Positions 4,265 through 63,914 of a stretch of DNA of 64,000 bases are shown piece after piece. The stretch comes from Ignavibacteria bacterium UBA2333 (GTDB lineage Bacteria > Bacteroidota > Ignavibacteria > Kapaibacteriales > Kapaibacteriaceae), in the NCBI GenBank assembly GCA_002344895.1, contig DDUR01000061.1:125569-189568 (forward strand), read 5' to 3'. Both the position numbers and the translations under genes were made by a program. The first letter of the stretch is position 1, and every line of letters starts with the position of its first letter. The notes beneath the pieces are model-generated. The model made no database searches, was not told where the DNA came from, and worked only from the letters and a program-made list of their open reading frames with translations.

Positions 4265-4267
4265 ACC

Positions 4268-6472: not shown

Positions 6473-6532
6473 CCCTCATGTGTTGCGCATAGTGCTTCGT
6501 AATGACCGTATCTCCACCAAAAGGTAACAGTC

Positions 6533-24323: not shown

Positions 24324-24621
24324 GTTCGGCCTCTCGAACGCCGTGAACCTTGTTTTGAACCGTTCCGAACATACCACGGAAATCGTTCCGTGCAACATCA
24401 CGGAACATCATCAGACAATGTTTGGCCTTGTTTGGCTCACATCTGGCAACAACGCTGTCGATGTGATGAACTGTCCGATATGCCGTAGTTCAGTTTGGCG
24501 CACCCGACGATCTCACGAAGGAAAATGTTCCCTCCACATGGAACAGAAATCATTCTGAGTTGTACGAGTCGATTCGTGGCGTATGTTCGCCACAGGTTCA
24601 TGTAACAGGGAGGAGTTGGCG
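24324..24621. promoter_or_regulatory. Divergent intergenic/promoter region between the RCC1 operon and the giant-gene operon, containing operator-like inverted repeats.
   Basis: A perfect 7-bp inverted repeat with a 4-bp spacer, CACGGAA-ATCG-TTCCGTG, lies at 24375–24392. A palindrome GAAC-C-GTTC lies at 24357–24365, and further GGAAC/GTTCC half-sites follow. GGAGG lies 9 nt upstream of the ATG at 24622. Confidence 0.4.
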
Positions 24622-27600
24622 ATGAAGAGGATCGCCCTCAACGTTGGCGCAATTTCGCGGCGACGCATACCTCGCATTTCGGCTGATGCACGCTCTGCGG
24701 TTGTTGCATTGGTTGGTGCCGAGAGTGTCGTCCTGAGCAGACGGCGCGCCCTAGGCGTGGCCGGTGCGCTTGGTATTCTTGCAGCTCCTGCGGCTCGTGC
24801 CGTAGAGAGTGCACTTTCAGATTCCTATCGAATTGTACGCCGTGGACAGCGTATCGCCATCGTCGTTGCCGACGTTGAGCGGTGGGTTCTCGACCCGTCC
24901 ATGTTCGACGGTAGTCCCGAGACGTTCTATTCGGAGTCCGACGATGGTATTCGCCTGGAACTCCGCCATGCACGATATCCCGGCACATCGATCTCGGCCG
25001 ATATTGTTGCCGAGATTTCACGCGGCACAACACCCGTCGTGCGATTTACGGGTCCGCTATTTGCTGCCCCTTCGTCCGCACCGTTACTTGCATGGCTGCT
25101 CGAACGTGAGAGATACGAAACAACGTGCGCCGTTCGTGCACTGAAGGGATTGCAGTTTGCGGCAGTACTACCCAACGCATCAACGATACGATTTCGGCCT
25201 ACGTGGTCCTTTACCGTCGATGGTCGTGCTGACGTTACGATTGACTCGTTACAGCTACCGTGTGACCGACTTGATGTCCAACTGTTAAAGGCACAACGGT
25301 CGCGTCCATCGTCTCTACTTTCCGGCTCTGCATCGTCTGGTACGTTCCTTCGTGCTGTTCGCGGTACATCTGCGTGGAACATTCCCCTTCAGTTTTCTGT
25401 GAGCCCATCGGCAGAACTTGAGGTTGATGCCGATGCGTTTGACACGTGTTCACTTGAAGTACGCAGTGATGGTCGATTTGCAGGTTTGCTGGAAGGGGGC
25501 CGAGAAGGGGCAAGTAGATTCCAACTCATTCATCATGATGGCCATGTTGGATTCCGCGACGTTCGATATGCATGGACATCGGCAAATGGTGATCGTCATG
25601 AGGCCTTTGTTGCACGATATGCGTCAACACCATCGTGGATTCGCGCACATGGTATTGCCTTTGAGATAAGTGATCGCGAAGGTTTACCTGCATGTGAACT
25701 TGTACGACGTAATGGAGTTGTAGAGCGGTTTGTTGTTGCTCCGGCACTGAACCGCTATCACATCTCGGTTGCAAACGCAGCAACGGAACCAACGGCGGTT
25801 CCCGCCGCATCACAACTTGCCTTCCTGTGTTCGGCTGTTGCACCATCTGCGCTACCAAAGCCACACTTCGCTATGACAGCCGTTCGGCTGGAACCGGCAC
25901 AACAGTTTTCGCAGCAAACACAGATTGATGTCTTCAAAAAGGATACAAAACCGAATATTAAGGTTGGCAAACAATCTGGACGGTGGAGCAAAAAGCCAAT
26001 TGTGTTTGCGACAAATCCGCGCGTTACTGTTATCCGTCCTGAAGACCTGCTCGTCCTGACGTTTGAGTTCCAGAACATTACACTCAACAAGGCTGCGGGC
26101 ACGTTTGCGGCGAGTGGAACAAACTCACGATTAATCGTCCACTTCCAGCCACAGCACATTGCTGAGCGAGCGTTCTTCTATGTTACGGACGACGACACGC
26201 CGAAGGATAAGGTAAATGCCTCTGAAGCACCGGCCAGTGCGCCGAAGAATCAGTCAGGGAACGAGCCTCGTCTTGACCCACCGATTGAGGCCATCATGGC
26301 TCATTCGTCGCGACTTGTCTTTTCCCTTCCGAACGGACACTCCGGTAAGTTTTCTATTGAGGGATTACTCGACTGGTCAAAGCTGAAAATGGTTGTCTCG
26401 CCATCAGCCAAACCGCCTGATGCCGAGTTTGTATTGAGTGTGCTGGCAAAGTCTGCCGTCTCAAAGTTTGGTGGCATTACTGCACCTAAGGATCCCAAGC
26501 CGGGTGGATCGTTCCTCGCCAAAAAGGGCAAAACATCTCAGACAAAGACGTATGCTCTCAGTGGTGGAATAGCGTCGAAGGTAAAATCTTCCACGAAGGC
26601 AGTTGTTGAATCGAATGCCGACATTGCCACCACGATCTCGCCTCAGTTACAGGCAGAGTTAGCAGCAGCTATACTTGAAAAACCGCCGATTCGTGAACCG
26701 AAAGATGACGAAACGGCAATCGAGTATCCGTATCGGCTGTTTATGTCGCCGAACAAGTATGCGGCCTGGGCACACAGCACAAAGGCAAAAATTGACGACG
26801 AACGGCGCGCCGAACTTTGGCATACACGACTCGGCGTACTGCATGCCAGCGGCGAAGTCAACGAAAATGCTGCCTACTTCCGGACGATGCGGGCAATATG
26901 GACGCCCGACATGAAGATTGCCTACAACGTAACGTCGGCAGCTCGTGAGCGTCCGTTCCGTACATCGATTAACAGACGTGACCGGCGCGAACTTGTTCAG
27001 CTCATGAGTGACTATTCACTCAAGGACACGGAAGTAAAGCCGGTTGATGTAAAACGGTTTATGATGACATCACTCGGCGCTTGGGCAGACATGACAGGTG
27101 TCTGGGATCCAAAGGACGGCGAGCTTGACGTAGAACAATGGATTCAGCGCGGTACTCAGGGACGTGATCACTTTGTGCGTATCTGTTACAAAGGTTATCT
27201 CTTCCCGTTTGGACATCGTGCGACACTTGTGAAGGAAACGGAGCGCAAGTTCCGACGGACACCTCGTGGTGACATGGCTGCCTACCTCATGCAGCGTATG
27301 TACATCATCCTGCGTCAACCCGTACGTGACTATCCTGCAGCTGGACTTGCTGGTATGCAGTTCCAGGGTCGGGAGTTCCCCTTCCGTCGAATCACAATTA
27401 CAACGAAGATCACGCCAAATCTTTACGATCCTGGGCTTACGGCCTTGGATGTAGCGAACATGGGGCCAAACTCATTCTGGCCTCAGTTTGACGCAAACGG
27501 TCCGGTTGACGTGAAGTGGTCGTGTATTGGCACTGATTGGGATAATAACGAAGTACACTTCAGTGCACCTCTGGCCTTTATCGCCAACACGGCCGCTATT

Positions 27601-29727
27601 GGAGACAAGTGCCAATCGTGGATTAACAACACGTATAAAAACGAAACAGCACGGCGTACGCTGGAAATGGGCGGTCAACAAATCGCTTATGCAGCATCCG
27701 TCAAACTTGGCGACACGTCACTCCCGACAGGCAAGTTCACACTCCACGGTTACTACGCTCCTGAAGCCGAACAGTACACACCGCGCTTTTTCCCTCGTAT
27801 GGAGAAGTCGAAGGTTCGTATTGAGAAGGTTGCAGAGTTAACGGGCAACAGTGGTGAACGCGATGTTGAGTTCTTTACGAACTACCTCAAACATGCCTTC
27901 GAAAAGGGCCAGTCGTTCTCGAAGGGTGTTGTACCTGCTGCAGATCAGGTAAAAAATCCATCGCAGATCTTCGTTCGTCTTGTTGACAAGCTTGGATTGG
28001 ACTTTGGATCTCAAAGCGACAAGGCAGGCGGTCTTGCCGCACCAAGTCTTGACATCAGTGGCCTGTCCAGACTTATGGGACCGATCGCCGGTGATCTTAA
28101 GACGGACATTGAAAAAACTGCAGCGGCTATCGGAAACTTCGATCCGATGCAGTACTTCGAAAGTCTGTTAAGTGCAAAGATCCTGGGTGATATCACCTTA
28201 AAGGATGTACTCGACTTTGTGATGGACGTCCTGAACAACCTTGACAAGATGCCGTCACTCGACAAGAAGGACGACTTCGGTGTAAAGGATGCCATCAGTA
28301 AGGCCATGCCGAAAAACGAGCTCCTTCAGGCTCTCACGGACAAGATAGCGGAGACGGACCTCGTGAAGTCGGCGGCCGAAGAGCTCAACGCCGTTGCTGG
28401 TGAGCTCGACAAGGACGTAAAGGACGCACGCGACGCCCTGCTCGCAGAAATTGCAGATCTCAAGTCGGAAATCAACGAAGCCAAGAACAAGATCCAGTCG
28501 GACGTTGAAGAAGTAAAGAAGGCCATTGAAGACCGCGTTAACGAATGGAAAAAACGACTCGAGGACAAGGCAAACGAACTCAAGAGTGAGATTGAGAAGG
28601 CCATTAAGCCGCTTGTTGATGCTGGCAACGAAGCCTACAAGAAATACGAGCAAGCACAACAGGCGCTGAATGCGCTTAAAAAGGGCCTTAACCTTTCGTA
28701 TGAATGGCAAACCGAGATCAAGTCGTCACCAGGCAACATTCTTGTTCCTCTATATCCAGGGGCAACAACAAAGGAAAAGAAAGCGATACTCTATCTCAAA
28801 GCGTCGTTCACGAAAAAACTCGACCTTGAGCCGCCTGAGATCTTGATCTATGGATCACTCTCGAACTTTGTTATCAACTTGATTGGTGATGGAGCTGCCC
28901 AGTTCCTCATCATCAAGTTTAATCGACTTGCTGTATCCGCCAAGATTGGCCAGAAGCCGGATGTTGACCCCGACATTGAGGCCGTAGAGTTTGCTGGGCC
29001 ACTGGCCTTTGTCAACAAGCTCAAGGACCTCATCCCAACCGGCGGTTCAGCTGGAGGTGTTGGATTCTCCTTTGACCTCAACGTCAACTCAGCCGGCATC
29101 ACGGCCTCACTGACCATCGGCCTCCCGAACGTCACGGTAGGTGTGTTCTCGCTCATGAACATGTCCTTCCTCATGAGCTTGACGATTCCGTTTGATGGCC
29201 GGAGTTTTTCGTCATACTTCGCCTTCTGTACACGCGAGAATCCATTCCGGCTCACCATCATGATGTTTGGTGGTGGTGGATTCTTTGGCATCGAGATTCA
29301 ACCGTCGGGCGTGCGTATGCTCGAGGCGGCGTTTGAGTTTGGCGGCAACTTCGCCTTTGATTGTGGTGTTGCCTCTGGTGGCGCAAGTGTTATGGCTGGC
29401 GTCTACTACAAACTCGAGCGCAAAGAAATCGATGGCAAGGAAGTTGAACAGTCGGAACTCACCGGATACTTCCGTCTGACCGGCAACCTCAGCATCCTCG
29501 GCATCATTCGCGTTAGCCTACTTTTTGAACTCAAGCTCACATGGCTCAGCACCGGTAAGGTCTTCGGTACTGCCACGATTGAAGTGGAAATCGAGATCCT
29601 CTTCATCAGCTTCTCCGTCGGTGTTACCGTTGAGCGTCAGCTGAAGGGTTCTGACGGAGATCCAACCTTCCACGACATGTTGCCTCAGGCATCAATGTGG
29701 GACACATACTGCAACGCCTTCGCATAA
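24622..29727 (+). CDS. Giant uncharacterised protein of about 1700 aa with a twin-arginine-like N-terminal signal, a central coiled coil and a Gly-rich C-terminal module. I recognise no catalytic motif.
   Basis: It is one uninterrupted ORF. I placed the start at Met-Lys-Arg with GGAGG 9 nt upstream; an alternative ATG lies at 24583. The Tat-like motif is LSRRRALGVAGALGILAAPAARA|VES. The coiled coil is KDAISKAMPKNELLQALTDKIAETDL...EIEKAIKPLVDAGNEAYKKYEQAQQALNALKKG. The C-terminus is ...FGGGGFFGIEIQP...FEFGGNFAFDCGVASGGASVMAGVYYK...TATIEVEIEILFISFSVGVTV. Confidence 0.6.
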   Translation: MKRIALNVGAISRRRIPRISADARSAVVALVGAESVVLSRRRALGVAGALGILAAPAARAVESALSDSYRIVRRGQRIAIVVADVERWVLDPSMFDGSPETFYSESDDGIRLELRHARYPGTSISADIVAEISRGTTPVVRFTGPLFAAPSSAPLLAWLLERERYETTCAVRALKGLQFAAVLPNASTIRFRPTWSFTVDGRADVTIDSLQLPCDRLDVQLLKAQRSRPSSLLSGSASSGTFLRAVRGTSAWNIPLQFSVSPSAELEVDADAFDTCSLEVRSDGRFAGLLEGGREGASRFQLIHHDGHVGFRDVRYAWTSANGDRHEAFVARYASTPSWIRAHGIAFEISDREGLPACELVRRNGVVERFVVAPALNRYHISVANAATEPTAVPAASQLAFLCSAVAPSALPKPHFAMTAVRLEPAQQFSQQTQIDVFKKDTKPNIKVGKQSGRWSKKPIVFATNPRVTVIRPEDLLVLTFEFQNITLNKAAGTFAASGTNSRLIVHFQPQHIAERAFFYVTDDDTPKDKVNASEAPASAPKNQSGNEPRLDPPIEAIMAHSSRLVFSLPNGHSGKFSIEGLLDWSKLKMVVSPSAKPPDAEFVLSVLAKSAVSKFGGITAPKDPKPGGSFLAKKGKTSQTKTYALSGGIASKVKSSTKAVVESNADIATTISPQLQAELAAAILEKPPIREPKDDETAIEYPYRLFMSPNKYAAWAHSTKAKIDDERRAELWHTRLGVLHASGEVNENAAYFRTMRAIWTPDMKIAYNVTSAARERPFRTSINRRDRRELVQLMSDYSLKDTEVKPVDVKRFMMTSLGAWADMTGVWDPKDGELDVEQWIQRGTQGRDHFVRICYKGYLFPFGHRATLVKETERKFRRTPRGDMAAYLMQRMYIILRQPVRDYPAAGLAGMQFQGREFPFRRITITTKITPNLYDPGLTALDVANMGPNSFWPQFDANGPVDVKWSCIGTDWDNNEVHFSAPLAFIANTAAIGDKCQSWINNTYKNETARRTLEMGGQQIAYAASVKLGDTSLPTGKFTLHGYYAPEAEQYTPRFFPRMEKSKVRIEKVAELTGNSGERDVEFFTNYLKHAFEKGQSFSKGVVPAADQVKNPSQIFVRLVDKLGLDFGSQSDKAGGLAAPSLDISGLSRLMGPIAGDLKTDIEKTAAAIGNFDPMQYFESLLSAKILGDITLKDVLDFVMDVLNNLDKMPSLDKKDDFGVKDAISKAMPKNELLQALTDKIAETDLVKSAAEELNAVAGELDKDVKDARDALLAEIADLKSEINEAKNKIQSDVEEVKKAIEDRVNEWKKRLEDKANELKSEIEKAIKPLVDAGNEAYKKYEQAQQALNALKKGLNLSYEWQTEIKSSPGNILVPLYPGATTKEKKAILYLKASFTKKLDLEPPEILIYGSLSNFVINLIGDGAAQFLIIKFNRLAVSAKIGQKPDVDPDIEAVEFAGPLAFVNKLKDLIPTGGSAGGVGFSFDLNVNSAGITASLTIGLPNVTVGVFSLMNMSFLMSLTIPFDGRSFSSYFAFCTRENPFRLTIMMFGGGGFFGIEIQPSGVRMLEAAFEFGGNFAFDCGVASGGASVMAGVYYKLERKEIDGKEVEQSELTGYFRLTGNLSILGIIRVSLLFELKLTWLSTGKVFGTATIEVEIEILFISFSVGVTVERQLKGSDGDPTFHDMLPQASMWDTYCNAFA

Positions 29728-29742
29728 GGTCGGGACAATACC

Positions 29743-32700
29743 ATGGCGACTCAGGAACTACAATGGATGGCGCTTCCCTACGATGTGGAGAAGCGGGACG
29801 GCGCAACGATGTTACGTGTGGCCGTAATGTGTCTTCCAAAACTCCAGGACACTACAACAGCCGATAATACCCTTGCAGAGTATCCGGACTTTACGGACTG
29901 GCCACTCACGCTGCAGGGTATACTTATTGGTCTGAACATCGGTGGAACAAACATCCCACCGACGGACCTCACACCTGTTGATGACGCACCGGACTCGGAG
30001 ACATGGAAGGCCATCTTCCGCCCGACAACTCTCGTGCGCCCGTTTGAGTACAAGCCGTTTACAGATTTTCGGATTTTTTCCTATCCGGTTGGACTTGTAC
30101 AAAAGACAACGGCAGACCTGCTGACGTCCCTTGCAAAGTCCTATGTGAATGTTGAACCGCTTGTACCTCCAATGGGCAACAATGTTGGAGGTATCAACAA
30201 CGACAAACTTTCCTCCGTCGGCGCACAGGATCCTGCCCTTCAACAGCTTTCGCAGATTCTGTTACCCTACATCGAAACAGAGAAAGATGAGATTCAGCTC
30301 AGGTCGTTAAAGCAGCGCTGGGAAACCGAAGGCCGAAACGCAACACTCATGATGATGCGCCAGGAGACGGCTCCAAAACAACAGCGTGATGTGCGGAAGG
30401 GGCCCGTAGAGGTTCCGAGTAATCCTGAGACAATGCTTGAACGACCTGTTTCTCTGGCAACACCCGTTGGCCAGTTACAAATGGTTGAGATCTATCACAC
30501 ACCAAGGAACTATGCTGTTGACGGTGTTGTGAATGGTAAAAAATTACCGCGTGTACAGCGCGTAAAACCGTCACGTCCAAAGTTCGACTTCCATCAGGTT
30601 GTGAGCGTCATGCGTGATTATCCCGTGATGCTTCGCCGTCTTGGCCTTGTTCGTCACTTTGAGTTTAAGATGCCCGATGGCATGTCGGCAAACGGAAAAA
30701 TCCGCGTCAATGTAACGTTCCCTTCACCAAAGGTTGGAACAAAGAACGTTGTACCGTGGACAGCATATCGACTTACAACGTCCGGTGATGCTGCCTACTG
30801 GCAGTTCCTGCCACGTCCTGATAGTGATTCGGAGATTGTTGGGCCGGTACTGTGCCTTAACGACACGACGAATTACGACGTTGTTCAGATTGATGTTGAT
30901 ACTTCAGCAATGAAGACACTCAACTTCACACGCGCTGTTGTTGGTCGACTTAAAAAGACAATGAATACGCGGGATCAGAAGGCCGATGCTTCTCCACCTG
31001 CCGTTCGCGGTACCGGACTACAACTTATTCGCGTTAATCGCGGGTTAAAGCTGGCAAAGTCCCTCATCCGAAATGCAAAAAATTATAACCGTCTTGTTGC
31101 GAATGAAGAGGTAACACTCTACGCAGATGATGTGCTGCGCGGTTATCGAATCGACGTCTTTGATGCGAAGGATAATGCGTGGCGCTCCCTCATGCGTCGG
31201 AATCTTACGTTAAAGTTTCCGGAGGCCGCAACACCAGCTCTTCGTAACACCGGCGTCACCGTCAACGACGAAGAGGGAGTGCTATCGTTTGCAGCCACAC
31301 GACCTGTTTCTCCCGACCCCAATGCCATGCGCAGTCTGTATGCACATGAAACCATTGCTCAGTGGGAGAATTGGTCACTCGTTGCTCCGCGTATCGGCTC
31401 GTTTATTGGTGCCGAAGACGAGCTTCAACCAGATCAACCAACACAGTCATCACCGAACGACTTTGAGTATCGTGTTGACTCTACAGCGTCGATTGTTGCA
31501 AAGTCGCTGCCACGTCTACGATATGGAAGGAAGTACAGACTACGTGCTCGTATCGTTGATGTAGCTGGTAATGGCCCTGCACTCGACGAACTCAATCCGC
31601 TCGACTTCACATGTGCAACGGAACTCATAACGTATCTGCGGTGGGATCCAATTGTATCGCCAACAATCGCTCTCAGGAATCACCCGATCGAAGGTGAATC
31701 TCTCGAGCGTATGGTGATTCGCACGTTTAATGAATCCGACGACGAAACCGTTTTGCCCCCTATCGAAGCCCCTTCCCTTCGTCATGTCTTCCCACCAATG
31801 GCAAGTGTGGAAACGTGTGAGCGTCATTCCTTGTTCGACGATGAGGTTTCTGGCTCGATGAAGTCGGACATGTACGACATCATCGTAAAAAAGACAGGCA
31901 AGACTGGACAACCCGCAGACGTACCCACACAGTGGTATGAGCGTTCTGCAAGTGGTGGACTTGTTCCACTTGGAGCCATCAACACAACTCCTCCCGTTGC
32001 AAAACAGCAGAATGCGATTCGATATCCCATTGCACAGGTAGACAAGGCCGTAAGCCCATACCTGCCTGATCCAATGTCGAGGGCCGTAACGTTCCAGAGT
32101 GTACCGGGCATGAATGCCAACGAGTTGCTGGAAATCTCGATGAGTGGTGTTTCAACTGCTGCCATCACATCGGCCACAGGTGTCGTAACAGTTGCGTTTG
32201 ATGGACTTGCCAATTGGCCAGACGTTGAGAGTATTCTTCTCAAGCTCGATGAAGGAACAGAGAAACCGTCATGGGATGCGGGAACAAAGACGCTGACCAT
32301 CCGCCTGCCAAAGGGCGAACAGGCATGGATTCGATTCTCATCATCATTGGGAACTGATCAGACAGAGGCCGACACACGTTCGGCACTTCATGGTCACATG
32401 TCAACGCTCAACAAGGCAAACGTTACCGGTGGAGCACTCAAAGCTGCCGTACGCGGACTTTCCTGGCTCATCACACCTGGCCGCACACTACACCTCGTCC
32501 ACGCAACACAAAAGCCTCTCAAGAAGCCAAAGGTGGTGAAAGGGGCTGTAAAGGGGCGATGGTTTGATTCAACCAATGCGCGCATTCATCTTACAGAGTT
32601 GTACTGTGATGCACGGTCAACACAGAAGGTAGACATCTCGGCACATTGGGAAATGGACACCGACGATGTTTCGAAACCGGCACCGGAAAAGCTTCAGCAG

Positions 32701-34029
32701 AAAGCACACGTTGGTGATCGTCATGCCGAGAATCGGACAGACGATACAATCGACTTTGACAAAACGCAGGAGTTTGGCGATACGAAGTATCGTCGGATTG
32801 AATACTTACCAACAGCAACTACTCGATTCCGCGAGTTTTTGCCTTTGATACGCAAAAACACCAACGACAAGATTACACGGCTCGGACAAGGGATCACACT
32901 CGATATCCTTTCATCAAAACGACCGGATGGTGTTGATCTGCTCTACGTCGTTCCGTCCTTCCGTTGGGTTGAAGAAAGCAAAACATTTGCCAATGGCCTC
33001 GTAAAAAGCACCCGTAAGGGTGGTGGCCTTCGTGTCTACATGAACAGGCCTTGGTACTCATCTGGTAACGGCGAACTTCTCGGCGTGATTCTCTACTCGT
33101 CAAAAAAATTCTCAACGGGACAGAATGCACCACCAGCCGACAATGGAGTGGGTGGTGGTTCGGGTAACATCACGTTTCAAAAGGGCATAAAGGACTTCTC
33201 GAAATCGAAGGTTGCTACGAATATCGACCTGGCGTTAAACAACCGACTGGATATTCCTGAGCAGCTTCAGCCCTACGTTACGCAGTGGGGCCTGGATCCG
33301 ATCTGGCTTTCTGCACCTACTCCGGCAGATGCTGCTCCTCGTATCCAGAACTTCCGTGTGCCCGACATTGTCCTTGACAGTGTAAGCATTGAAGAGGTGC
33401 CCGCTTCCCAACGATTTAGCGTCATAGGTTACGAACCAAAGTTTGACGCAGAACGTAAACTTTGGTATTGTGACATTGAGGTTGATCCGGCTGAGAGTTA
33501 TTGGCCGTTTCTTCGCCTTGCTCTTTGCAGGCTACAGCCGAAGTCGGTTGCTGACTCACAAACAGGGCGTGACGTCTACGTTTCGCGCATTGTCCAGTCT
33601 GAGTTCTGTCAGCTCGCTCCAGATCGTGAGGCTACGGCCCGTGTTGACGATGGTGACGCTACGGTCACCGTACAGGTGGTCGGCCATACGTATCGTATGA
33701 ACACGGCAGGACATCAGGGCTCCGATATCGAAGTCACCATTGAGCGCCGTAAACCATCAGCAGGTGGTGAAGATCTTGGTTGGGAACCTGTCGTAACACA
33801 ACGTATTGACCGACTCCACGGAGCAAACATGTGGGGTGGTACGATTCCGGTTCAGGGCGGAGTAAATTCTGCTCAACATCGTGTTGTCATCAAGGAATAC
33901 GAACAGTTCTTTGTTGATCCAGAGAAGAATCGTGATTCAAACCTTGGTGACCCCGTTACTGGTGAAGGCGCTATGACGTTCTCACTCGACAAGCGTATTG
34001 TTTACGCTGACATCTTACCACTCTTCTAG
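29743..34029 (+). CDS. Giant uncharacterised protein of 1428 aa with no recognisable domain or signal peptide, coupled to the upstream giant gene.
   Basis: It is one uninterrupted ORF starting 13 nt after the upstream stop. I see no Walker A, HExxH, GxSxG, YD/Rhs or T9SS CTD motifs. Coding-like codon periodicity is maintained throughout. Confidence 0.6.
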   Translation: MATQELQWMALPYDVEKRDGATMLRVAVMCLPKLQDTTTADNTLAEYPDFTDWPLTLQGILIGLNIGGTNIPPTDLTPVDDAPDSETWKAIFRPTTLVRPFEYKPFTDFRIFSYPVGLVQKTTADLLTSLAKSYVNVEPLVPPMGNNVGGINNDKLSSVGAQDPALQQLSQILLPYIETEKDEIQLRSLKQRWETEGRNATLMMMRQETAPKQQRDVRKGPVEVPSNPETMLERPVSLATPVGQLQMVEIYHTPRNYAVDGVVNGKKLPRVQRVKPSRPKFDFHQVVSVMRDYPVMLRRLGLVRHFEFKMPDGMSANGKIRVNVTFPSPKVGTKNVVPWTAYRLTTSGDAAYWQFLPRPDSDSEIVGPVLCLNDTTNYDVVQIDVDTSAMKTLNFTRAVVGRLKKTMNTRDQKADASPPAVRGTGLQLIRVNRGLKLAKSLIRNAKNYNRLVANEEVTLYADDVLRGYRIDVFDAKDNAWRSLMRRNLTLKFPEAATPALRNTGVTVNDEEGVLSFAATRPVSPDPNAMRSLYAHETIAQWENWSLVAPRIGSFIGAEDELQPDQPTQSSPNDFEYRVDSTASIVAKSLPRLRYGRKYRLRARIVDVAGNGPALDELNPLDFTCATELITYLRWDPIVSPTIALRNHPIEGESLERMVIRTFNESDDETVLPPIEAPSLRHVFPPMASVETCERHSLFDDEVSGSMKSDMYDIIVKKTGKTGQPADVPTQWYERSASGGLVPLGAINTTPPVAKQQNAIRYPIAQVDKAVSPYLPDPMSRAVTFQSVPGMNANELLEISMSGVSTAAITSATGVVTVAFDGLANWPDVESILLKLDEGTEKPSWDAGTKTLTIRLPKGEQAWIRFSSSLGTDQTEADTRSALHGHMSTLNKANVTGGALKAAVRGLSWLITPGRTLHLVHATQKPLKKPKVVKGAVKGRWFDSTNARIHLTELYCDARSTQKVDISAHWEMDTDDVSKPAPEKLQQKAHVGDRHAENRTDDTIDFDKTQEFGDTKYRRIEYLPTATTRFREFLPLIRKNTNDKITRLGQGITLDILSSKRPDGVDLLYVVPSFRWVEESKTFANGLVKSTRKGGGLRVYMNRPWYSSGNGELLGVILYSSKKFSTGQNAPPADNGVGGGSGNITFQKGIKDFSKSKVATNIDLALNNRLDIPEQLQPYVTQWGLDPIWLSAPTPADAAPRIQNFRVPDIVLDSVSIEEVPASQRFSVIGYEPKFDAERKLWYCDIEVDPAESYWPFLRLALCRLQPKSVADSQTGRDVYVSRIVQSEFCQLAPDREATARVDDGDATVTVQVVGHTYRMNTAGHQGSDIEVTIERRKPSAGGEDLGWEPVVTQRIDRLHGANMWGGTIPVQGGVNSAQHRVVIKEYEQFFVDPEKNRDSNLGDPVTGEGAMTFSLDKRIVYADILPLF

Positions 34030-37595: not shown

Positions 37596-38071
37596 AGACT
37601 CCCTCGGCCACAGAAGTCGTCATGACGGAACTTGTACTTCCGAACGACACGAACTACCTCGGCAACCTTCTCGGTGGTCGGCTGATGCACTGGATAGACA
37701 TTGCTGCCGCTCTTGCTGCAATGCGCCATTCGGGCAAGGTATGTGTCACGGCATCCGTCGACGAGATTTCGTTTAATGAGCCCATCAAACTCGGACACGT
37801 CGTGCACATCCGAGCCATGCTGACGCGGTCGTTTCGCACGTCGATGGAAGTCTTCGTTGAAGTACACCGTGAGGACCCACTTAACGGCACAACCACGCTG
37901 ACCTCACAGGCATTTCTCACCTTTGTGGCAATTGATCAGTACGGTAAACCACTTCCTGCTCCTCCACTAGATCCGGTAACAGACGAGGAGAAACACCGGT
38001 TTGAGGAAGCAGCCATTCGTCGTGAAGCTCGTCTGAAGTATCGAGAGACAATCAGAGCGCGGCGCGGATGA
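37592..38071 (+). CDS. Acyl-CoA thioesterase (hotdog fold, YciA-like).
   Basis: The sequence ...VMTELVLPNDTNYLGNLLGGRLMHWIDIAAALAA...CVTASVD... matches the hotdog thioesterase core. Confidence 0.65.
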   Translation: MKTPSATEVVMTELVLPNDTNYLGNLLGGRLMHWIDIAAALAAMRHSGKVCVTASVDEISFNEPIKLGHVVHIRAMLTRSFRTSMEVFVEVHREDPLNGTTTLTSQAFLTFVAIDQYGKPLPAPPLDPVTDEEKHRFEEAAIRREARLKYRETIRARRG

Positions 38072-39357
38072 GAGTCATCGTTCTCATCGCAGTCGTTGCT
38101 CTTGCAGCGGCGACGGGATATGCAGATGAGACAACCGTAGTCCGAATGGTGCGGACGTACGGGGGGACCGATGAACGTATGCCTCCAGTCGTCATGATTT
38201 CGAACCGGTCCACACAAACCACATCGACAATCGGCGCTGAATTCGTAACTGTTGAGTTTGACGTTCAAAGCACAACGATTCCGAATATCTATGCACGGAT
38301 TGTCCATTGTGACGCATTCTGGAATGACGACGACAATGGTTTCGTATCTGACATTACGATGCGAACGTCTCTCGCTGACTGGACACTGGCCCCACAACGG
38401 TCTCGATTCTTCTCGTATCGCGGGAAGATGCGTTTCCCGAACGAGCAGGTGAATGTGCGATTCAGCGGGAATTGGAAGGTTCGTATTTACGATATGGATG
38501 GCGACCGATTGTTGACGGAGACACGGTTCTTTGCCGTAGATGAGTCGGCGTCGATGCGTATGAACTTCATGACAGACTTTTACGAACCGCGTTATCGTGT
38601 AAGTACAACAGCTCTAACACTTGAAGCTCTTGTATCGGCTGATCCATCACGTTTACTTGATGGCATGTTGCACACCGTCGTTATCTACCGCAACAGTCGC
38701 TGGAACGAACCATTTACGATCACGACGAAGGCAGCCGACGTCGCTAATCCACCATCAAGCTCAACATCCGTTGGCGGCGTGTTGTACGGAGGGAAGGTTT
38801 TCAGAATCTCGCGAATACCAGCAGAAAACGAGTACCGAATACTTGACCTCTCGAATACAGCCAGATTCCCATCAACCGGACAGCCAATTCGACTTCCCTT
38901 AAGTGACCTGCGCCGAAATGGCAACTTTTTTCAGAGGGCGAATGATGGCGTCATGGTCACGTCGATGATATCCTCCTCTGACGACGAATACGTTCCTATT
39001 GAATTCCTTCTCGACCCAACACCCGGCGGCCCTTCAGCAGAAGATGTCTTTGTTGTTGGATCGTTTAACTCCTGGAAACCAGACCGATCATGGCAAATGT
39101 CGTGGTCTGACGAACTGCGCCTGTACCGTCTTCGACAGTGGGTTCGCCGAGGGTCACATGACTATCTCTATGGGACAGGACGTGTGAATGCAGATAGTGG
39201 CGACATCGTAAACTTGTCGTTTGAGGAGTTTGAAGGAAACACAGCGTCGGCGGGACACGGCTTCCTGGCCTTGGCCTACTATCGTGTGCTGGATTACGGC
39301 GGTTACGACGGAATTGTGGCTGTGACAACGTCAAACATTTACACGGGTTATCGGTGA
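38068..39357 (+). CDS. Hypothetical secreted protein of 429 aa.
   Basis: There is a signal peptide ([19 protein letters not shown]). I recognise no motif. Confidence 0.4.
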
Positions 39358-43670: not shown

Positions 43671-45473
43671 ATGGAAAAGTTCAGAAACTTCTGTATCATC
43701 GCCCACATTGACCACGGTAAGTCTACACTTGCCGATCGCCTTCTCGAAAAGACGGGGCGCGTCACACAACGGGAGATGGTAACCAACCAAATTCTCGACG
43801 ACAATCCTCTCGAACAGGAACGCGGTATTACGATTAAACTCCATGCTATTCAGATGGAGTATGCCGCGAAGAACGGATCTCGGTACACACTCAATCTGAT
43901 TGACACGCCGGGCCACGTTGACTTTTCCTATGAGGTGTCACGATCTCTTCATGCATGTGAAGGCGCACTCCTCGTGGTGGATGCGACGCAGGGAGTTGAG
44001 GCACAGACGATCTCGAATCTCTACATGGCCATTGAACAGGGTCTCGAGATCATTCCTGTTATCAACAAGATCGACCTCCCGAGCGCTGTCACAACGATTG
44101 AGAATGTGAAGCGTCAGGTCATCGACCTACTCGGTTGTAAGGAGGAAGAACTCATTCTCGCATCTGCCAAGGCAGGTATTGGGATTGAGGACATTCTCGA
44201 GGCAGTTGTTGACCGTATTCCTCCGCCGAAGGGAGATCCCAATGCTCCACTCCGAGCTCTTATCTATGATTCCATCTTCGATCCGTACCGTGGCGTCGTC
44301 GTAAACGTGCGCGTTTTTGATGGCACGATGAAGGAAAAGGACAAGATCCTCTTTATGGCAACGGGCCAGACATATGAGCTCGACGAAGTTGGTATCCTCT
44401 ACATGAAGCGCCATCGTACGGGCGTGATATCAGCCGGTGATGTGGGATACTTTACGGCTGCAATACGTCGGCTTCAGGATACAAAGGTTGGCGACACGGT
44501 CACAATAGCCTCAAATCCATGCGCCGCCGCCATTGAAGGGTTCCGCGAAGTAAAACCAATGGTGTTTAGCGGTATCTATCCTGCGGATAGTGACGACTTC
44601 GAAGATCTTCGTGAAGCTCTCGGAAAACTCACCCTTAACGATGCCGCTATCTCATTCGAACCAGAATCGTCCAGTGCCCTGGGATTTGGTTTCCGTTGCG
44701 GTTTCCTCGGCCTGCTCCACATGGAGATTGTCCAGGAGCGGCTTGAGCGTGAGTTTAATCAGACAATTGTTACAACGGTACCCAACGTACGTTACCGCGT
44801 CCTGCGGACAAACGGTGAAGTGTTGTGGGTCGACAATCCGGCCCAGTTACCGAGTCCAGGTGTTATCACAGAGATTCAAGAGCCCTTTATCAAGGCTCAA
44901 ATCATCGCTCCAACCGAATATGTTGGTACGATTATGAAGCTCTGTATTGAGCGTCGTGGCACGATGCTGGGAACAACATATCTCTCGGCTGACCGTGTTG
45001 ATATGTCCTTCGATTTGCCTTTAGCAGAAGTCGTGTTTGATTTCTACGACAAGCTCAAGAGTAACACTCGCGGATATGCCTCGCTTGACTACGAATATTC
45101 GGATTACAAGGCAGGAGATCTCGTTCGACTGGATATTCTTCTGAACGGTGAACAAGTTGATGCTCTGTCGAGTATCGTCCACCGTCAGAAAGCACATGAA
45201 TGGGGTAAAAAACTTACGAGTAAACTCAAGGAGCTTATTCCACGACAGATGTTCGAAGTGGCAATTCAGGCCGCCATCGGCTCAAAGATTGTTGCTCGTG
45301 ACTCGATCAGTGCCATGCGGAAAAACGTTCTGGCCAAGTGTTACGGTGGAGACATCTCACGGAAACGGAAACTCATTGAGAAGCAGAAAGAGGGTAAAAA
45401 GCGAATGAAGCAGGTAGGTCGAGTGGAGATTCCGCAAGAAGCCTTCCTCGCTGTGCTCTCTCTCGATAACTGA
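43671..45473 (+). CDS. lepA: Elongation factor 4.
   Basis: The sequence [26 protein letters not shown]... matches LepA, and the length is about 600 aa. Confidence 0.9.
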
Positions 45474-45508: not shown

Positions 45509-46492
45509 ATGTCGCTCACAGATCACATATACGCTCGCATTCCTGGCTCCGTTGGCAGCTTTCTCCGTCATCGACGTGAAAAGATCAAGAATCGTAAGCC
45601 ACCTGAGACGTTTGTCGAACACATTGTTTCGTGGATTCGGACGATCGTATGGGCATTGTCCGTTGTGACCATCGTAAACGGTCTAGCTCTCGCATCGTTT
45701 ACTGTACCTACAGGCTCAATGGAGGACACGGTCCTTCCCGGTGAGTTTCTCTTCGTGAATAAACTCGTCTATGGTCCATCTACACCACAGATCATCCCGT
45801 TTGTAAACGTTGCACTTCCCTACTACAAAACGCCGCCAATCTTTCCACCGGAACAGGGCGACGTTATTGTCTTCATTTTTCCTGGAAATCGCGACGAAGT
45901 AAAACCTCTAAACTTTGAATACTACCTGAAACGCTGCGTGGCAGTTTCAGGCGACGTCCTCGAGATTCGCAATCGCAAGGTTCTTGTGAATGGTGTTGAG
46001 TATGCTCTGCCGGAAGGTGGAAAGTATCAAAGTGACACCTGGACGCCCGAAAAACGCACATTATATGAGGTTAATGACACGTATCGGACATTTCCTGTTG
46101 GTAGAGGATATACGCGCGACAATTACGGCCCTATCCGTATTCCTAAGGAAGGTGACGTTATCAAACTCGAATCTGATTCTGCCTGGCGTGAATGGGCCGT
46201 GTTTATTGCTCGTGAAGGGCACATCGTAAATGCTGTGACACGGACAATTGACGGTAGTCCTGCCACAACCTATACGGTTGAACGCGACTATGTCTTTGGC
46301 ATGGGAGACAATCGAGATAATTCTGAAGACTCCCGCTATTGGGGATTTATCCCGGAAGAAGACGTTGTTGGCACGCCGATGATCGTCTATTGGTCATGGG
46401 AAAAGGATGACGCCGTACGTGGAGTTGAGTACGGATTCTTCGACAAGATCAAACGTATTCGGTGGTCTCGCCTCGGTACGATCATTCGATAA
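45509..46492 (+). CDS. lepB: Signal peptidase I, copy 1.
   Basis: A TM anchor is present. The Ser box is SMEDTVLPGE, the Lys box is YLKRCVAVSGDVLEI, and the sequence GDNRDNSEDSRYWGFIPEEDVVG is present. Confidence 0.85.
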   Translation: MSLTDHIYARIPGSVGSFLRHRREKIKNRKPPETFVEHIVSWIRTIVWALSVVTIVNGLALASFTVPTGSMEDTVLPGEFLFVNKLVYGPSTPQIIPFVNVALPYYKTPPIFPPEQGDVIVFIFPGNRDEVKPLNFEYYLKRCVAVSGDVLEIRNRKVLVNGVEYALPEGGKYQSDTWTPEKRTLYEVNDTYRTFPVGRGYTRDNYGPIRIPKEGDVIKLESDSAWREWAVFIAREGHIVNAVTRTIDGSPATTYTVERDYVFGMGDNRDNSEDSRYWGFIPEEDVVGTPMIVYWSWEKDDAVRGVEYGFFDKIKRIRWSRLGTIIR

Positions 46493-46498
46493 ATAACC

Positions 46499-47218
46499 AT
46501 GCGTCGTCGTATCGGTGCCGCAGCTCTTGTTGTCACCCTCGTTCTCGCCGTCATCTTTGTCAGGCCTTACACCGTTCCAACGGACTCCATGTCACCTACG
46601 CTTTCACCCGGTGATGTGATTCTTGCGCTTCGCTCTGGTCCAGGCGCATCCTTTCGATGGTTTACAGTGAATCGTGGTGACGTGGTTGTGTTTCCGAATC
46701 CCGGCAAACGTGATGAGCTACACGGCGGAGATGGCGAGGCATACAGTAAACGATGTATTGCCGTCGCCGGTGATACGGTGGTGATTCGGAATTCAACGAT
46801 CTTCATCAATGGCAGTCCATTGCCATATAAACGTCCTCCCCACGATACAACTACTGTTCATAACATATGGGAATCATTTCCGCGGCATCAACAGTGGGAT
46901 AAGGGGCAATGGGGCCCCTATCGTGTTCCAGCCGCTGGAGACACCCTGATACTCGATGAAGATGGCTGGAAACGTTGGGCTGTCATCGTCGCTCGTGATG
47001 GATTCGATGTTGACGAGGAAACACGCACGGTTGATGGACGCGAGGTAACGCAGCATGTACTTCAACACGACTTCATTTTCGTTGTCGGTGATAATACTCT
47101 GAACTCCGTTGACAGCCGCGTGTGGGGTCCAATACGCGAAGATGCCGTTGAGGCCCTTCCTCTTTTCGTTTTATTCTCGACTGATTCATCTCGTCGACTT
47201 CTTCAATGGATTCGATAG
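46499..47218 (+). CDS. lepB: Signal peptidase I, copy 2.
   Basis: A TM anchor is present. The Ser box is SMSPTLSPGD, the Lys box is YSKRCIAVAGDTVVI, and the sequence GDNTLNSVDSRVWGPI is present. Confidence 0.85.
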   Translation: MRRRIGAAALVVTLVLAVIFVRPYTVPTDSMSPTLSPGDVILALRSGPGASFRWFTVNRGDVVVFPNPGKRDELHGGDGEAYSKRCIAVAGDTVVIRNSTIFINGSPLPYKRPPHDTTTVHNIWESFPRHQQWDKGQWGPYRVPAAGDTLILDEDGWKRWAVIVARDGFDVDEETRTVDGREVTQHVLQHDFIFVVGDNTLNSVDSRVWGPIREDAVEALPLFVLFSTDSSRRLLQWIR

Positions 47219-47832
47219 CGTTCGTGAAGCACACGCATGATCTGGCATCAATCACGCCGCGAGATATCCTCGTGACGTCTGCTGCCGCTATCACCGTCGC
47301 CATTCTCCTGAAGGTGTTTGTGCTCGGCGCATTTATGATTCCATCTCATTCGATGGAAAACACGCTGTTACCTGGTGACTACATCATCGTCAACAAACTC
47401 GCGTCGTGGATGGCAACAATTGAGCGAGGTGACGTTATTGTGTTTACCCTTCCCGATAGTATGGATGCTGCCGGTGCATCTGGAACGCCATTTATCAAAC
47501 GTGTGATTGGACTCGGCGGAGATACCGTACGGCTCGCATCAACGGGAATTTTTGTGAATGGTTGGCGTGTGCCCGATCCGCCACGTTCCGCGTCGGCATA
47601 TGCATTATCACACGATCCGCTGTCGAAAACGGTCACAGTCGTCGTACCAGACGGATACTATTACGTCCTTGGCGACAATCGTTCGAACTCCTGGGACAGT
47701 CGATATTGGGGATGTTTACCCGGTGATTGTCTTGAAGGCCTTCCTCTGGTTGTGTACTACAGCTACGGAACAACGGCTACAGATTCCATCCCTCACATCC
47801 GCTGGGACCGCATGATGGAGCGTATACGATGA
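47206..47832 (+). CDS. lepB: Signal peptidase I, copy 3.
   Basis: A TM anchor is present. The Ser box is SMENTLLPGD, the Lys box is FIKRVIGLGGDTVRL, and the sequence GDNRSNSWDSRYWGCLP is present. Confidence 0.85.
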   Translation: MDSIAFVKHTHDLASITPRDILVTSAAAITVAILLKVFVLGAFMIPSHSMENTLLPGDYIIVNKLASWMATIERGDVIVFTLPDSMDAAGASGTPFIKRVIGLGGDTVRLASTGIFVNGWRVPDPPRSASAYALSHDPLSKTVTVVVPDGYYYVLGDNRSNSWDSRYWGCLPGDCLEGLPLVVYYSYGTTATDSIPHIRWDRMMERIR

Positions 47833-48977
47833 CGGGATTCTACATCCACGTACCGTTCTGCGACAAGAAGTGCTCGTATTGTGACTTCTACAGTATCGAG
47901 TCCGTTGGACTCATTGAACGATATGTCGATACCGTCATCCGCGAGATCGAACGTCGGGCAGACACCGTGCCAGGACCGATAACATCGGTGTTTTTTGGTG
48001 GTGGGACACCTTCGCTCCTTTCGCCCCTTCAACTTCAACGCATCATCGACACGATTCTCCGGGAGACACGGATTACCTCGGATGCAGAATGGACAATGGA
48101 ATGTAATCCTGGTACGGTCTCACTATCGTCACTTACGGCCTACCGCTCCTCTGGTATCAATCGCCTTAGTTTCGGAGTTCAATCAATTCATGCAGACGAA
48201 CTGACGTTTCTTGATCGCATCCATACTGCGGATCAAGCTTTTGAAGCTGTCGATCTGGCACGTCGTGCTGGATTCGACAATGTCAACGTTGACGTGATGT
48301 TTGCCCTACCGAATCAGTCAGCAGAAAAGTTATCGGCAACACTAGATCAAATCCTTCGCCTTGAGCCCGATCATGTAAGTGCGTACTCTCTTATTTATGA
48401 ACCCGGTACACCTCTCTATGCTCGAATGAAGAAGGGTCTTGTTGTCCCGGAATCCGAAGAGCATGATGCCGAACTCTATGCTCTCGTTATCGAACGTCTT
48501 GTGTCGGCTGGTTACGAACAATATGAAGTAAGCAACTTCTCGCGTAATGGAGCTACGTGCCGACACAACCTAACCTATTGGCATGGCCTCCCATATGTGT
48601 CGGTAGGCCCAAGCGCTCACGGGTTTGTTGGTGACGTTCGGTACTGGAATCTTCGATCTCTTACGGCATGGACGGAAGCTGTTGACAAAGGTGAACTTCC
48701 TGAGGCGAATCGCGAAAGACTCACACAGTTTGACAAGATTGTCGAGTTAGCCTTCCTTACTCTGCGAGCCGATGGAGTACCACTCTCAAAATTTCATCGC
48801 GACTATGGAATCGATGTCGTTGCAGCACTCGGTCCGCAACTTGGATACTGGCTTGACGCCGAGTTTGTCACACTGAATGCACAAACACTTCGACTCACCT
48901 CAAAGGGCTACGCTGTTTGTGATGAGCTTACCGTGAAGCTCGTTGGCGCAATCGAATCGGCCCTACTCGCCTCGTAA
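47829..48977 (+). CDS. hemW: Radical-SAM heme chaperone HemW (HemN-like, oxygen-independent coproporphyrinogen-III-oxidase family).
   Basis: The sequence YIHVPFCDKKCSYCDF carries the CxxxCxxC radical-SAM motif. The length is about 380 aa. Confidence 0.85.
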   Translation: MTGFYIHVPFCDKKCSYCDFYSIESVGLIERYVDTVIREIERRADTVPGPITSVFFGGGTPSLLSPLQLQRIIDTILRETRITSDAEWTMECNPGTVSLSSLTAYRSSGINRLSFGVQSIHADELTFLDRIHTADQAFEAVDLARRAGFDNVNVDVMFALPNQSAEKLSATLDQILRLEPDHVSAYSLIYEPGTPLYARMKKGLVVPESEEHDAELYALVIERLVSAGYEQYEVSNFSRNGATCRHNLTYWHGLPYVSVGPSAHGFVGDVRYWNLRSLTAWTEAVDKGELPEANRERLTQFDKIVELAFLTLRADGVPLSKFHRDYGIDVVAALGPQLGYWLDAEFVTLNAQTLRLTSKGYAVCDELTVKLVGAIESALLAS

Positions 48978-50165
48978 TGCCTCTGAGATAACAGACCGAG
49001 ATGCTCTGCGTGCTGGATATACTGCGGCACCAATGGCCAAGAGTAGACCAACCGTTGAAATCGCGACAACGTCAAAAACATGGACATCCATGGGGAGCGA
49101 AGAGATAATGTAGCCCTGTGATTGGTCAAAGGATATCCAACCAAAATGTTGTTGGCCCAGTGCAAGGGCTGTACCGATTATCATTCCAAGACCAGTTCCA
49201 GCAACACCGATAAAGAGTCCTTGCCAGAGATATATCGTACGAATATTCTCAGCTGTGAGACCTAACGTACGAAGGACAGCAATGTCCTTTCGTTTTTCAA
49301 CGACAGTCAAGGTTAACGACACGAGAATATTAAACGCTGCTACAACAACAATGAGCGCTAGGACGATAAAGGTGCCAATACGTTCGAGCTTCATTGTGTC
49401 GGTAAGACCGCGGTGCAAATCTTCCCACGTTACAACGCGCTGCTGTGGGAAGGCACTCTGGAGTTGCGCTGCAATGGTAGCTGCGTCCTGTCGATTGGAT
49501 ACGGTGACATCAATGACAGATCTTTGGAAACCGCGACCGAGTTCAACAATCGTTAACGAGTCAGTATACACTTGTGTATAGTCAATCTCCCTCGAGGCAT
49601 TGGACTGGAAAACTCCGCGAACGATTGCTGGTCGGCCTGTAGGGACGATCATCGTACGAAGTGCACGTTCAATCATTGCCGGCGACAATAACCGGACCGT
49701 GTCACCAACGTAGAGGCCCATTGTTTCTGCAATACCTGCGGCGACAACTACAGATGGCATCCCATCATGAGGCCGTGTCATAGGAGTACCGATAATCGTC
49801 TTGTCCTGCAGACCATGCATTCCATGTTCATACGATGCCGAAACGCCCCATCCTTCTGCAACCTGTGCAGAACCATGATGCTCAACGATCAGTCGTGATG
49901 AGACGAGTGGCACGGCGGTGATGACTGATGGCACAACCCTGCGTACTGCTTCAACGTCGGTACTACCTTCAATTCGGACATGAGGTCCGAATCCCGTCAT
50001 AAGATCTGCAGCAAGGTTCCTGAAACCATTAAACAACGACATGACCACAATCAGTGCGGCCGTGCCGATGATTATACCGACCGTGCTCGACACCGTGATT
50101 ATGGTAATAAAACCAAGTCTACGGGGTCGAACTGTTCGTAATGCTATGCGGAACGGTACGTTCAT
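48963..50165 (-). CDS. Permease of the FtsX/LolC/LolE family (lipoprotein-releasing ABC transporter permease-like).
   Basis: An N-terminal TM helix is followed by a large periplasmic domain and three C-terminal TM helices. The length is 400 aa. Confidence 0.7.
   Translation of the reverse strand: MNVPFRIALRTVRPRRLGFITIITVSSTVGIIIGTAALIVVMSLFNGFRNLAADLMTGFGPHVRIEGSTDVEAVRRVVPSVITAVPLVSSRLIVEHHGSAQVAEGWGVSASYEHGMHGLQDKTIIGTPMTRPHDGMPSVVVAAGIAETMGLYVGDTVRLLSPAMIERALRTMIVPTGRPAIVRGVFQSNASREIDYTQVYTDSLTIVELGRGFQRSVIDVTVSNRQDAATIAAQLQSAFPQQRVVTWEDLHRGLTDTMKLERIGTFIVLALIVVVAAFNILVSLTLTVVEKRKDIAVLRTLGLTAENIRTIYLWQGLFIGVAGTGLGMIIGTALALGQQHFGWISFDQSQGYIISSLPMDVHVFDVVAISTVGLLLAIGAAVYPARRASRSVISEALRGE

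Positions 50166-55913: not shown

Positions 55914-63914
<8,001 letters not shown>

Follow-up and report, generated by a model that had tools for sequence, protein, structure and literature searches.

Three signal peptidase I genes between lepA and hemW in a Kapaibacteriaceae-like bacterium: a doublet plus one divergent copy, in a layout shared with relatives

The window analysed here, a 64,000-nucleotide (64-kb) stretch of contig DDUR01000061.1 from Ignavibacteria bacterium UBA2333, contains three consecutive genes for type I signal peptidases (SPase I; peptidase family S26), which lie between lepA and hemW. The region is a tightly packed, co-directional lepA-lepB(a)-lepB(b)-lepB(c)-hemW cluster of a Kapaibacteriaceae-like bacterium (Bacteroidota/Chlorobiota group), with all five genes on the plus strand, lepA first and hemW last. 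These genes and the convergent gene behind them are as follows:

43671..45473, plus strand: lepA (translation elongation factor 4); TIGR01393 at 972.6 bits (cutoff 533.9), Pfam GTP_EFTU and LepA_C
45509..46492, plus strand: lepB copy 1, a-type long signal peptidase I, 327 aa; TIGR02227, PF10502
46499..47218, plus strand: lepB copy 2, b-type divergent signal peptidase I, 239 aa; TIGR02227, PF10502
47206..47832, plus strand: lepB copy 3, c-type short signal peptidase I, 208 aa; TIGR02227, PF10502
47829..48977, plus strand: hemW (radical SAM heme chaperone), 382 aa; TIGR00539 at 300 bits (cutoff 205.4)
48963-50165, minus strand: FtsX/MacB_PCD-family gene, convergent to hemW

The initial annotation had described three lepB-like genes of 327, 239 and 208 aa downstream of lepA, followed by hemW with a 4-nt overlap, and the coordinates and junctions agree with this description. 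In the six-frame list of open reading frames (ORFs), lepA extends upstream to a TTG at 43641, and its 600-aa orthologues begin at the ATG at 43671. As read from the sequence, lepA and copy 1 are separated by a 35-nt spacer and copies 1 and 2 by a 6-nt spacer, copies 2 and 3 overlap by 13 nt, a junction absent from the earlier description, and the stop codon of copy 3 is interlocked with the start codon of hemW in an ATGA motif. The GC content of the three lepB genes (0.47-0.53) is even over the cluster and similar to that of its flanks. At its 3' end, hemW overlaps the convergent FtsX/MacB_PCD gene by 15 nt (48963-48977), which leaves no space for an intergenic terminator; the same convergent overlap is seen in the related loci L081, L082, L085, L091, L172, L174 and L175.

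All three lepB products score above the cutoffs of the relevant family models, with 127, 104.3 and 141.2 bits for copies 1, 2 and 3 against PF10502 (Peptidase_S26; cutoff 22.9) and 113.1, 97.4 and 134.7 bits against TIGR02227 (sigpep_I_bact, an NCBIfam equivalog; cutoff 47). In phmmer searches of the PDB, each of them aligns to Escherichia coli LepB and to Staphylococcus aureus SpsB or other Gram-positive SPase I chains. No further S26 ORF of at least 80 aa was detected in the 64-kb window. Other members of the family were considered and set aside: the models for conjugative TraF-type S26 proteins (TIGR02771, NF010459, NF010412) reach at best 56.1 bits (cutoff 100.25), and the genes adjoin lepA and hemW rather than transfer genes; the model for the nickel superoxide dismutase maturation protease (TIGR02754) yields 23.3 and 29.6 bits (cutoff 63.25). 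Copy 3 reaches 24.4 bits with the archaeal-type model TIGR02228, below its cutoff of 51.85.

E. coli LepB, whose reference sequence agrees with the PDB alignments and places Ser90 and Lys145 correctly, was aligned with 41 S26 copies, which come from 21 loci. The alignment shows that the equivalents of Ser90, Lys145, Gly272, Asp273, Asn274, Ser278, Asp280 and Arg282 are kept in every copy (41/41), including the three in the window. The serine boxes read GSMEDTV in copy 1 (Ser70), DSMSPTL in copy 2 (Ser30) and HSMENTL in copy 3, aligning with SGSMMPT of E. coli, and the lysine boxes read YLKRCVAVSGD, YSKRCIAVAGD and FIKRVIGLGGD, aligning with YIKRA. Box E is GDNRDNSEDSRYWG in copy 1, GDNTLNSVDSRVWG in copy 2 and GDNRSNSWDSRYWG in copy 3; the Arg275 equivalent is a threonine in copy 2, with the other listed box E residues intact. 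The three copies are thus catalytically intact by sequence, as proposed in the initial annotation, with Ser, Lys and the box E residues present in all and no copy lacking either member of the dyad. The motif wording used there holds for the Ser and Lys contexts and needs correction in two places, since copy 1 has SMEDTV rather than SMxxTL and copy 2 has GDNT rather than GDNR. The presence of Ser and Lys in the three copies and in their orthologues also led us to reject an assignment to the inactive SPase-like type represented by Streptococcus pyogenes SipA and S. aureus SpsA.

Each copy possesses one strongly hydrophobic N-terminal segment that ends right before the catalytic serine (best Kyte-Doolittle means over 19 residues, 2.0-2.5), preceded by basic residues in copy 1 (RHRREKIKNRK) and copy 2 (MRRR). 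The proteins would be N-in single-span anchors whose catalytic domain faces the trans side, an orientation that we infer from the positive-inside rule. The fold was checked for copy 2, whose AlphaFold2 model (mean pLDDT 80.7, predicted TM-score 0.80) was compared with the PDB using Foldseek. The top 23 matches comprise only type I signal peptidases and SipA (probability 1.0; query-normalised TM-score 0.34-0.49), the best fold matches being E. coli LepB and S. aureus SpsB, again with probability 1.0. Taken together, the three copies are apparently active type I signal peptidases, as judged from their residues and predicted architecture.

The sequences of the cluster were further compared between the window and two close relatives, L081 (a JGI metagenome; its LepA is 99.3% identical to that of the window) and L082 (a Logan assembly), at a synonymous divergence (dS) of about 0.8-1.2. 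The ratio of nonsynonymous to synonymous substitution rates (dN/dS) is 0.006 for lepA, 0.03-0.04 for copy 1 (a), 0.08-0.10 for copy 2 (b), 0.04-0.08 for copy 3 (c) and 0.04-0.07 for hemW. Across these three genomes, gene lengths are equal, the catalytic motifs are all conserved and copy 2 contains no frameshift or stop codon. All three copies are therefore held under strong purifying selection, and none of them is decaying.

Within this common framework, the copies differ in architecture. Copy 1 has a basic N-terminal tail, a transmembrane segment at about residues 38-67, the catalytic Ser70, its lysine in YLKRC and a big insert between boxes D and E; it aligns to the E. coli LepB structures 1t7d and 9nlo in phmmer, and its orthologues follow lepA in every Kapaibacteriaceae-like locus examined. 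Copy 2 starts with MRRR, has its transmembrane segment within residues 1-28, its catalytic serine at position 30 and its lysine in YSKRC. Over 251 aa, it shares 34% identity with copy 1, and the aligned part takes in the D-E insert, which copy 3 lacks. Every b copy is without the N-terminal cytoplasmic tail of the a-type, and the b copies of the window genus additionally lack 17 aa after box B that are present in the a-type copies and in the b copies of L089 and L091. A search of 5.8 billion clusters returned just three close clusters for copy 2, with identity dropping from 85% to 31%; proteins identical to copy 2 are present in ENA bioreactor-sludge assemblies. Copy 3 has a transmembrane segment at about residues 19-50, its catalytic serine in PSHSM and its lysine in FIKRV, lacks the a-type insert and aligns to E. 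coli LepB and to Bacillus anthracis SPase I in phmmer; it has many orthologues of 190-215 aa with 43-56% identity, some of them named Kapabacteria by NCBI. Compared across three triplet lineages, orthologues are 36-39% identical for b, 61-64% for a and 51-58% for c.

The distribution of the copies among relatives was examined in two ways. A scan anchored on LepA, with one genome per species, yielded 80 loci, the nearest of which belong to metagenome-assembled genomes (MAGs) labelled Kapaibacterium, Ignavibacteriota or Bacteroidota; NCBI taxonomy places Kapaibacterium in the Bacteroidota, family Kapaibacteriaceae. In this set, lepA is followed by no S26 gene in the Bacteroidia, Chitinophagia and similar groups, by a single one in several Kapaibacterium-like loci and by two in five loci (L005, L006, L007, L009 and L010), after which hemW comes next except in L006, where the contig ends. 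The doublets of the more distant L005, L007 and L009 consist of an a and a c copy, and the second copy of L010 is also a-like. Two loci of this set contain interrupted reading frames, with the S26 gene after lepA split into ORFs of 122 and 170 aa in L001 (4270-5211) and lepA split into ORFs of 292 and 303 aa in L006 (8007-9809); these are probably frameshifts of MAG assembly, although pseudogenes are possible. The LepA-anchored set includes few of the closest relatives and misses the triplet lineages, whose LepA proteins are 87-89% identical and which were found through exact-protein look-ups of c-type homologues. Its apparent message, that the nearest relatives have one copy, was accordingly discarded as misleading.

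All seven of these look-ups fell into a lepA-S26-hemW locus, followed by the convergent FtsX-family gene, ppk and, in most cases, LTD-domain genes. Five of the seven (L090 and L172-L175) carry a doublet of one long and one short S26 gene. The 327/239/208 triplet of the window is shared by L081, L082 and L085, and further triplets exist in L089 (lepA-330-280-191-hemW), which carries a protein that NCBI names 'Ca. Kapabacteria thiocyanatum', and in L091 (lepA-323-246-204-hemW), so that the arrangement is not peculiar to the window genome or its genus. Yet another layout is found in L176, whose LepA is 69% identical to that of the window: here, the order is lepA-a-a'-c-methyltransferase-hemW (3781-6753), with a copies of 300 and 297 aa, which are separated by a 317-nt gap and form sisters at 100% bootstrap, and a c-type copy of 278 aa. 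In this group, two S26 genes after lepA are the norm, and three are recurrent. A metagenome scan anchored on copy 3, using box D/E patterns, returned no Kapaibacteriaceae loci among the matches listed, which were unrelated S26 proteins of at most 41% identity, and no paper in the literature collection searched names both Kapabacteria and signal peptidase.

The history of the copies was examined with neighbour-joining trees based on Kimura distances. In the S26 tree (200 bootstrap replicates), the short c copies form a clade apart from that of the long a copies, and the b copies sit on long branches on the a side. The b copies of the window genus group with the b copy of L091 at 82%, all b copies come together at 50%, and in none of the replicates (0%, 0/200) is a b copy joined to the a copy from the same genome. 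In a tree of concatenated LepA and HemW (961 columns), the four triplet loci come together at 68%, within a clade supported at 100% that also holds doublet loci. Copy 2 is closer to copy 1 (34% identity) than to the best non-orthologous protein in the 5.8-billion-cluster search (31%). The shared a-type insert, the identity to copy 1 and the position of b on the a side of the tree indicate that copy 2 is derived from the a-type. A recent, genus-specific duplication of copy 1, an idea prompted by the small number of close clusters, was rejected, given that no replicate joins b to its own a copy and that b occupies the same slot in L089 and L091.

These results change the picture drawn in the initial annotation, which had read the locus as a triplication and proposed a phylogeny to date it. 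The phylogeny does place the copies, with a and c as an old pair and b on the a side, and it contains no single triplication: copies 1 and 3 are an ancient pair found in many relatives, and only copy 2 has been added. Nor is the triplet a special feature of this genome, as L089 and L091 have the same layout and the triplet lineages group together. The window locus is the doublet of Kapaibacteriaceae- and Ignavibacteriota-like bacteria plus one gene. Tandem duplication of an a gene at this locus is, moreover, a recurrent event, as seen from the independent triplet of L176 and the a-like second copy of L010. The arrangement is inherited within a Kapaibacterium subclade, real but ordinary.

The best overall explanation, to which we assign a probability of roughly 0.8, combines a two-step history with three Ser/Lys-dyad SPase I genes of partly different preferences. 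The long a and the short c gene would represent an old pair that settled between lepA and hemW in many relatives; later, close to or at the root of a Kapaibacterium subclade, a tandem copy of a would have become the middle gene b. The latter would have diverged fast, losing the N-terminal tail and, in the window genus, also a 17-aa hairpin, and would since have been kept by purifying selection. Each copy would act as a single-span, membrane-anchored SPase I with a Ser/Lys dyad that cleaves off Sec (and Tat) signal peptides at the outer surface of the cytoplasmic membrane, and the copies would share this work with partly different substrate preferences.

Several points weigh against this explanation or parts of it. 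The b branches are very long, and their grouping at 82% and 50% may be partly due to long-branch attraction; the 68% support for the monophyly of the triplet lineages is modest. Given the long branches and moderate supports, a may instead have been duplicated twice independently, once in the window genus together with L091 and once in L089. The copy counts cover the lepA-hemW locus, and the organisms are known from metagenomes only. Co-transcription of the lepA-hemW cluster is something we infer from spacing and overlaps alone. Finally, the b copies of L089 and L091 have Leu144, and the combination of Ser/Cys144 and Ala142 described below is confined to the window genus, so that Ser/Cys144 is a genus-level trait and not a general property of b.

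The suggestion that the copies differ in substrate preference comes from the residues lining their pockets. In E. coli LepB, the S1 pocket is formed by Ile86, Pro87, Ser88, Ser90, Met91, Leu95, Tyr143, Ile144 and Lys145 and the S3 pocket by Phe84, Gln85, Ile86, Pro87, Ile101, Val132, Asp142 and Ile144 (PMC2259416). A comparison of these positions had been suggested in the initial annotation; once carried out, it revealed that the S1/S3 residues do differ between the copies, with each of the three types showing a distinct, internally conserved signature. Numbered by E. coli columns, the a-type has Ser83, Val86, Thr88, Val95, Leu101, Tyr142 and Leu144, the c-type Ala83, Ile86, Ser88, His89, Leu95, Ile101 and Ile/Val144, and the b-type of the window genus Pro83, Asp/Asn89, Ala142, Ser or Cys144 and Thr275. 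Some division of labour among the three copies is therefore plausible from their sequences. Position 144 lines both pockets, and changes at Ile144 and Ile86 reportedly relax cleavage fidelity and specificity, as Karla et al. are said to have found in 2005. A small polar residue at this position is thus a reasonable hint that the specificity of copy 2 may be altered in the window genus. In such a scheme, a and c would act as general enzymes; owing to Ser or Cys at its Ile144 equivalent and Ala at position 142, b of the window genus would handle a more restricted or a changed range of cleavage sites. As a separate observation, the c-type copies of the Kapaibacteriaceae contain an invariant histidine between Ser/Thr88 of the oxyanion hole and the catalytic serine (IPSHSME), at a position occupied by glycine in E. 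coli and in the a-type; it is seen in the window, L081, L082, L089-L091 and L172-L175.

It is tempting to go one step further and propose that copy 2 of the window genus has been neofunctionalised, with a reshaped S1/S3 pocket (Ser/Cys144, Ala142, Asp/Asn89) that would accept substrates with non-canonical -1/-3 residues that the general enzymes cannot process, or that its proline at the site tied to arylomycin resistance keeps secretion running under natural SPase inhibitors; we regard this extension as speculative and somewhat doubtful. Similarly tentative is the view that copy 2 is a redundant spare, an equivalent duplicate kept for dosage or robustness with unchanged specificity. Its catalytic and box E residues are intact, it lies in the same apparent operon as copies 1 and 3, the young a/a' pair of L176 is still very similar, and, in the accounts given by PMC4010754 and PMC8724576, minor SPases of Listeria and Streptomyces can partly replace the major one. 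However, copy 2 shares just 34% of its residues with copy 1, lacks the N-terminal tail and the 17-aa segment and differs at pocket positions 83, 89, 142 and 144, and the long retention of so diverged a copy at a dN/dS of 0.08-0.10 is unlike what pure dosage would predict. A more specific proposal would make copy 2 an inhibitor-insensitive back-up, kept because it withstands arylomycin-like lipopeptides from neighbours in sludge or biofilms, with routine processing left to the sensitive a and c copies. Copy 2 of the window genus does have a proline seven residues before the catalytic serine (RPY/FxVPTxSM), in the E. coli Pro83/84 column, where the residue is Ser, Ala, Thr, Val, Gly or Phe in every a and c copy; proline at column 83 (UniProt 84) is a natural determinant of arylomycin resistance (PMC9360617). 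Yet many bacteria have a proline at this site, and its presence does not in itself speak for selection by an inhibitor; the corresponding residue of b is Thr in L089 and Ile in L091, the surroundings showed no resistance or biosynthesis genes, and the argument hangs on a single residue, which makes this proposal quite improbable.

The marked divergence of copy 2 could also be taken as a sign that it is decaying or has become a pseudo-enzyme or chaperone-like S26 protein, comparable to S. pyogenes SipA or S. aureus SpsA. Of the three copies, it sits on the longest branch and, at 97 bits, has the lowest family score, its orthologues retain only 36-39% identity across lineages in which the a copies retain 61-64%, and SipA (4n31) is among its fold matches. 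Against this, Ser, Lys and the catalytic box E residues are present in all five b sequences, and the gene has kept a constant length of 239 aa without frameshift or stop codon in three lineages, at the low dN/dS given above, so that a non-catalytic role appears highly improbable. In the database search, identity drops from 85% to 31% with nothing in between, a very large gap that might alternatively point to horizontal acquisition from outside the lineage, with insertion between a and c. However, the best non-orthologous matches are a-type proteins of the same broad group, with the neighbouring copy 1 scoring top, the clade-specific a-type insert is present in copy 2, the GC content of the three genes fits the flanks, and L089 and L091 have related b copies in the corresponding place. 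A foreign origin is, thus, very improbable, and a local duplication of a, followed by divergence under purifying selection, is the reading that we prefer.

In monoderm bacteria, it is textbook knowledge that type I SPase genes can be multiple and clustered. Among the known systems, E. coli LepB (MEROPS S26A; PDB 1b12, 1kn9, 1t7d) shares the Ser/Lys dyad, the residues of boxes B-E and the position downstream of lepA, and copy 1 aligns with it over the whole catalytic domain, big D-E insert included. Unlike E. coli, which has one copy with two transmembrane segments, the window has three, each with one predicted segment; they are only about 20-30% identical to the E. coli enzyme, copy 3 is without the big insert, and the pockets deviate in Val86, Thr88, Val95, Tyr142 and Leu144 of a, in His89 of c and in Ala142 and Ser144 of b. 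The closest known precedent, both for the way the genes are arranged and for the suggested sharing of work among enzymes whose activity is here predicted, is Listeria monocytogenes, whose SipX, SipY and SipZ are three neighbouring SPase I paralogues; as PMC4010754 relates, SipZ alone is enough to secrete proteins normally, and the roles of the other two are partial or specialised (Bonnemain et al., 2004). Listeria is a monoderm Firmicute with three short-type enzymes, whereas the host of the window is a diderm (Bacteroidota/Chlorobiota) whose long, truncated-long and short types lie between lepA and hemW. Several clustered type I SPase genes are also described for Streptomyces lividans, in which SipY is the major enzyme of the sipW-sipX-sipY-sipZ cluster and the minor ones can compensate (Parro et al., 1999, as reported in PMC8724576); in contrast to the window, this cluster comprises four genes and belongs to an actinomycete with another genomic context. 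The same source states that Gram-negative bacteria commonly carry a single SPase I (PMC8724576), which makes a diderm with three somewhat less usual. The nearest counterpart of all is the lepA-lepB(long)-lepB(short)-hemW doublet of L005, L007, L009, L090 and L172-L175, with the same neighbours, orthologous a and c genes and tight spacing, from which the loci of the window, L081/L082/L085, L089 and L091 differ by the extra b gene between a and c.

The initial annotation had linked the multiplicity of signal peptidases to a heavy load of cargo for the type IX secretion system (T9SS) and other secreted proteins. Cargo of this system crosses the inner membrane by means of ordinary Sec signal peptides. 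The features of the window that bear on this idea, together with other large proteins, are as follows:

38068-39357, plus strand: T9SS plug-like protein; PF17116 at 39 bits, above cutoff, and NF052315 at 80 bits, below the cutoff of 100
55914-60839, minus strand: reprolysin-like M12 metalloprotease, 1641 aa; two Laminin_G_3 stretches and, at the C terminus, a T9SS sorting domain of type A (29.5 bits with TIGR04183, whose cutoff is 23)
2135-4264, minus strand: sorting-domain protein, 709 aa; sorting-domain match of 23.5 bits, at the threshold of 23
21420-24401, minus strand: RCC1-like repeat propeller protein, 993 aa; PF25390 at 354 bits, several RCC1 repeats
24583-29727 and 29743-34029, plus strand: two giant ORFs next to each other, 1714 aa and 1428 aa

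The two giant ORFs match no Pfam or NCBIfam family, their sole match being a sub-threshold, apolipoprotein-like one (25.9 bits, cutoff 90). Judging from its sorting domain, the 1641-aa metalloprotease, which has an orthologue at the same place in L081, is a likely T9SS cargo protein. Given the plug-like protein and the sorting-domain proteins, a T9SS is plausibly present in the window genome; the evidence comes from the 64-kb window, which is too short to show a heavy load of cargo. Among the doublet-bearing relatives, L177 is the only case with sorting-domain proteins near the locus.

Tandem SPase I paralogues have been described before, in Listeria and Streptomyces. The locus neither opens nor closes a long-standing question. 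What it does show is that, in the diderm Kapaibacteriaceae and their relatives, lepA is routinely followed by two SPase I genes of different structure, and that tandem duplication of the long gene has happened more than once. This information can be used for annotation and secretome prediction in uncultured bacteria from sludge and bioreactors, although its practical value is limited. What remains of interest is the middle copy, which evolves fast and has altered pocket residues; it is worth an annotation line. If the shift in its specificity were true, copy 2 would be a natural counterpart of the engineered pocket mutants of E. coli LepB and could explain signal peptides that standard predictors miss.

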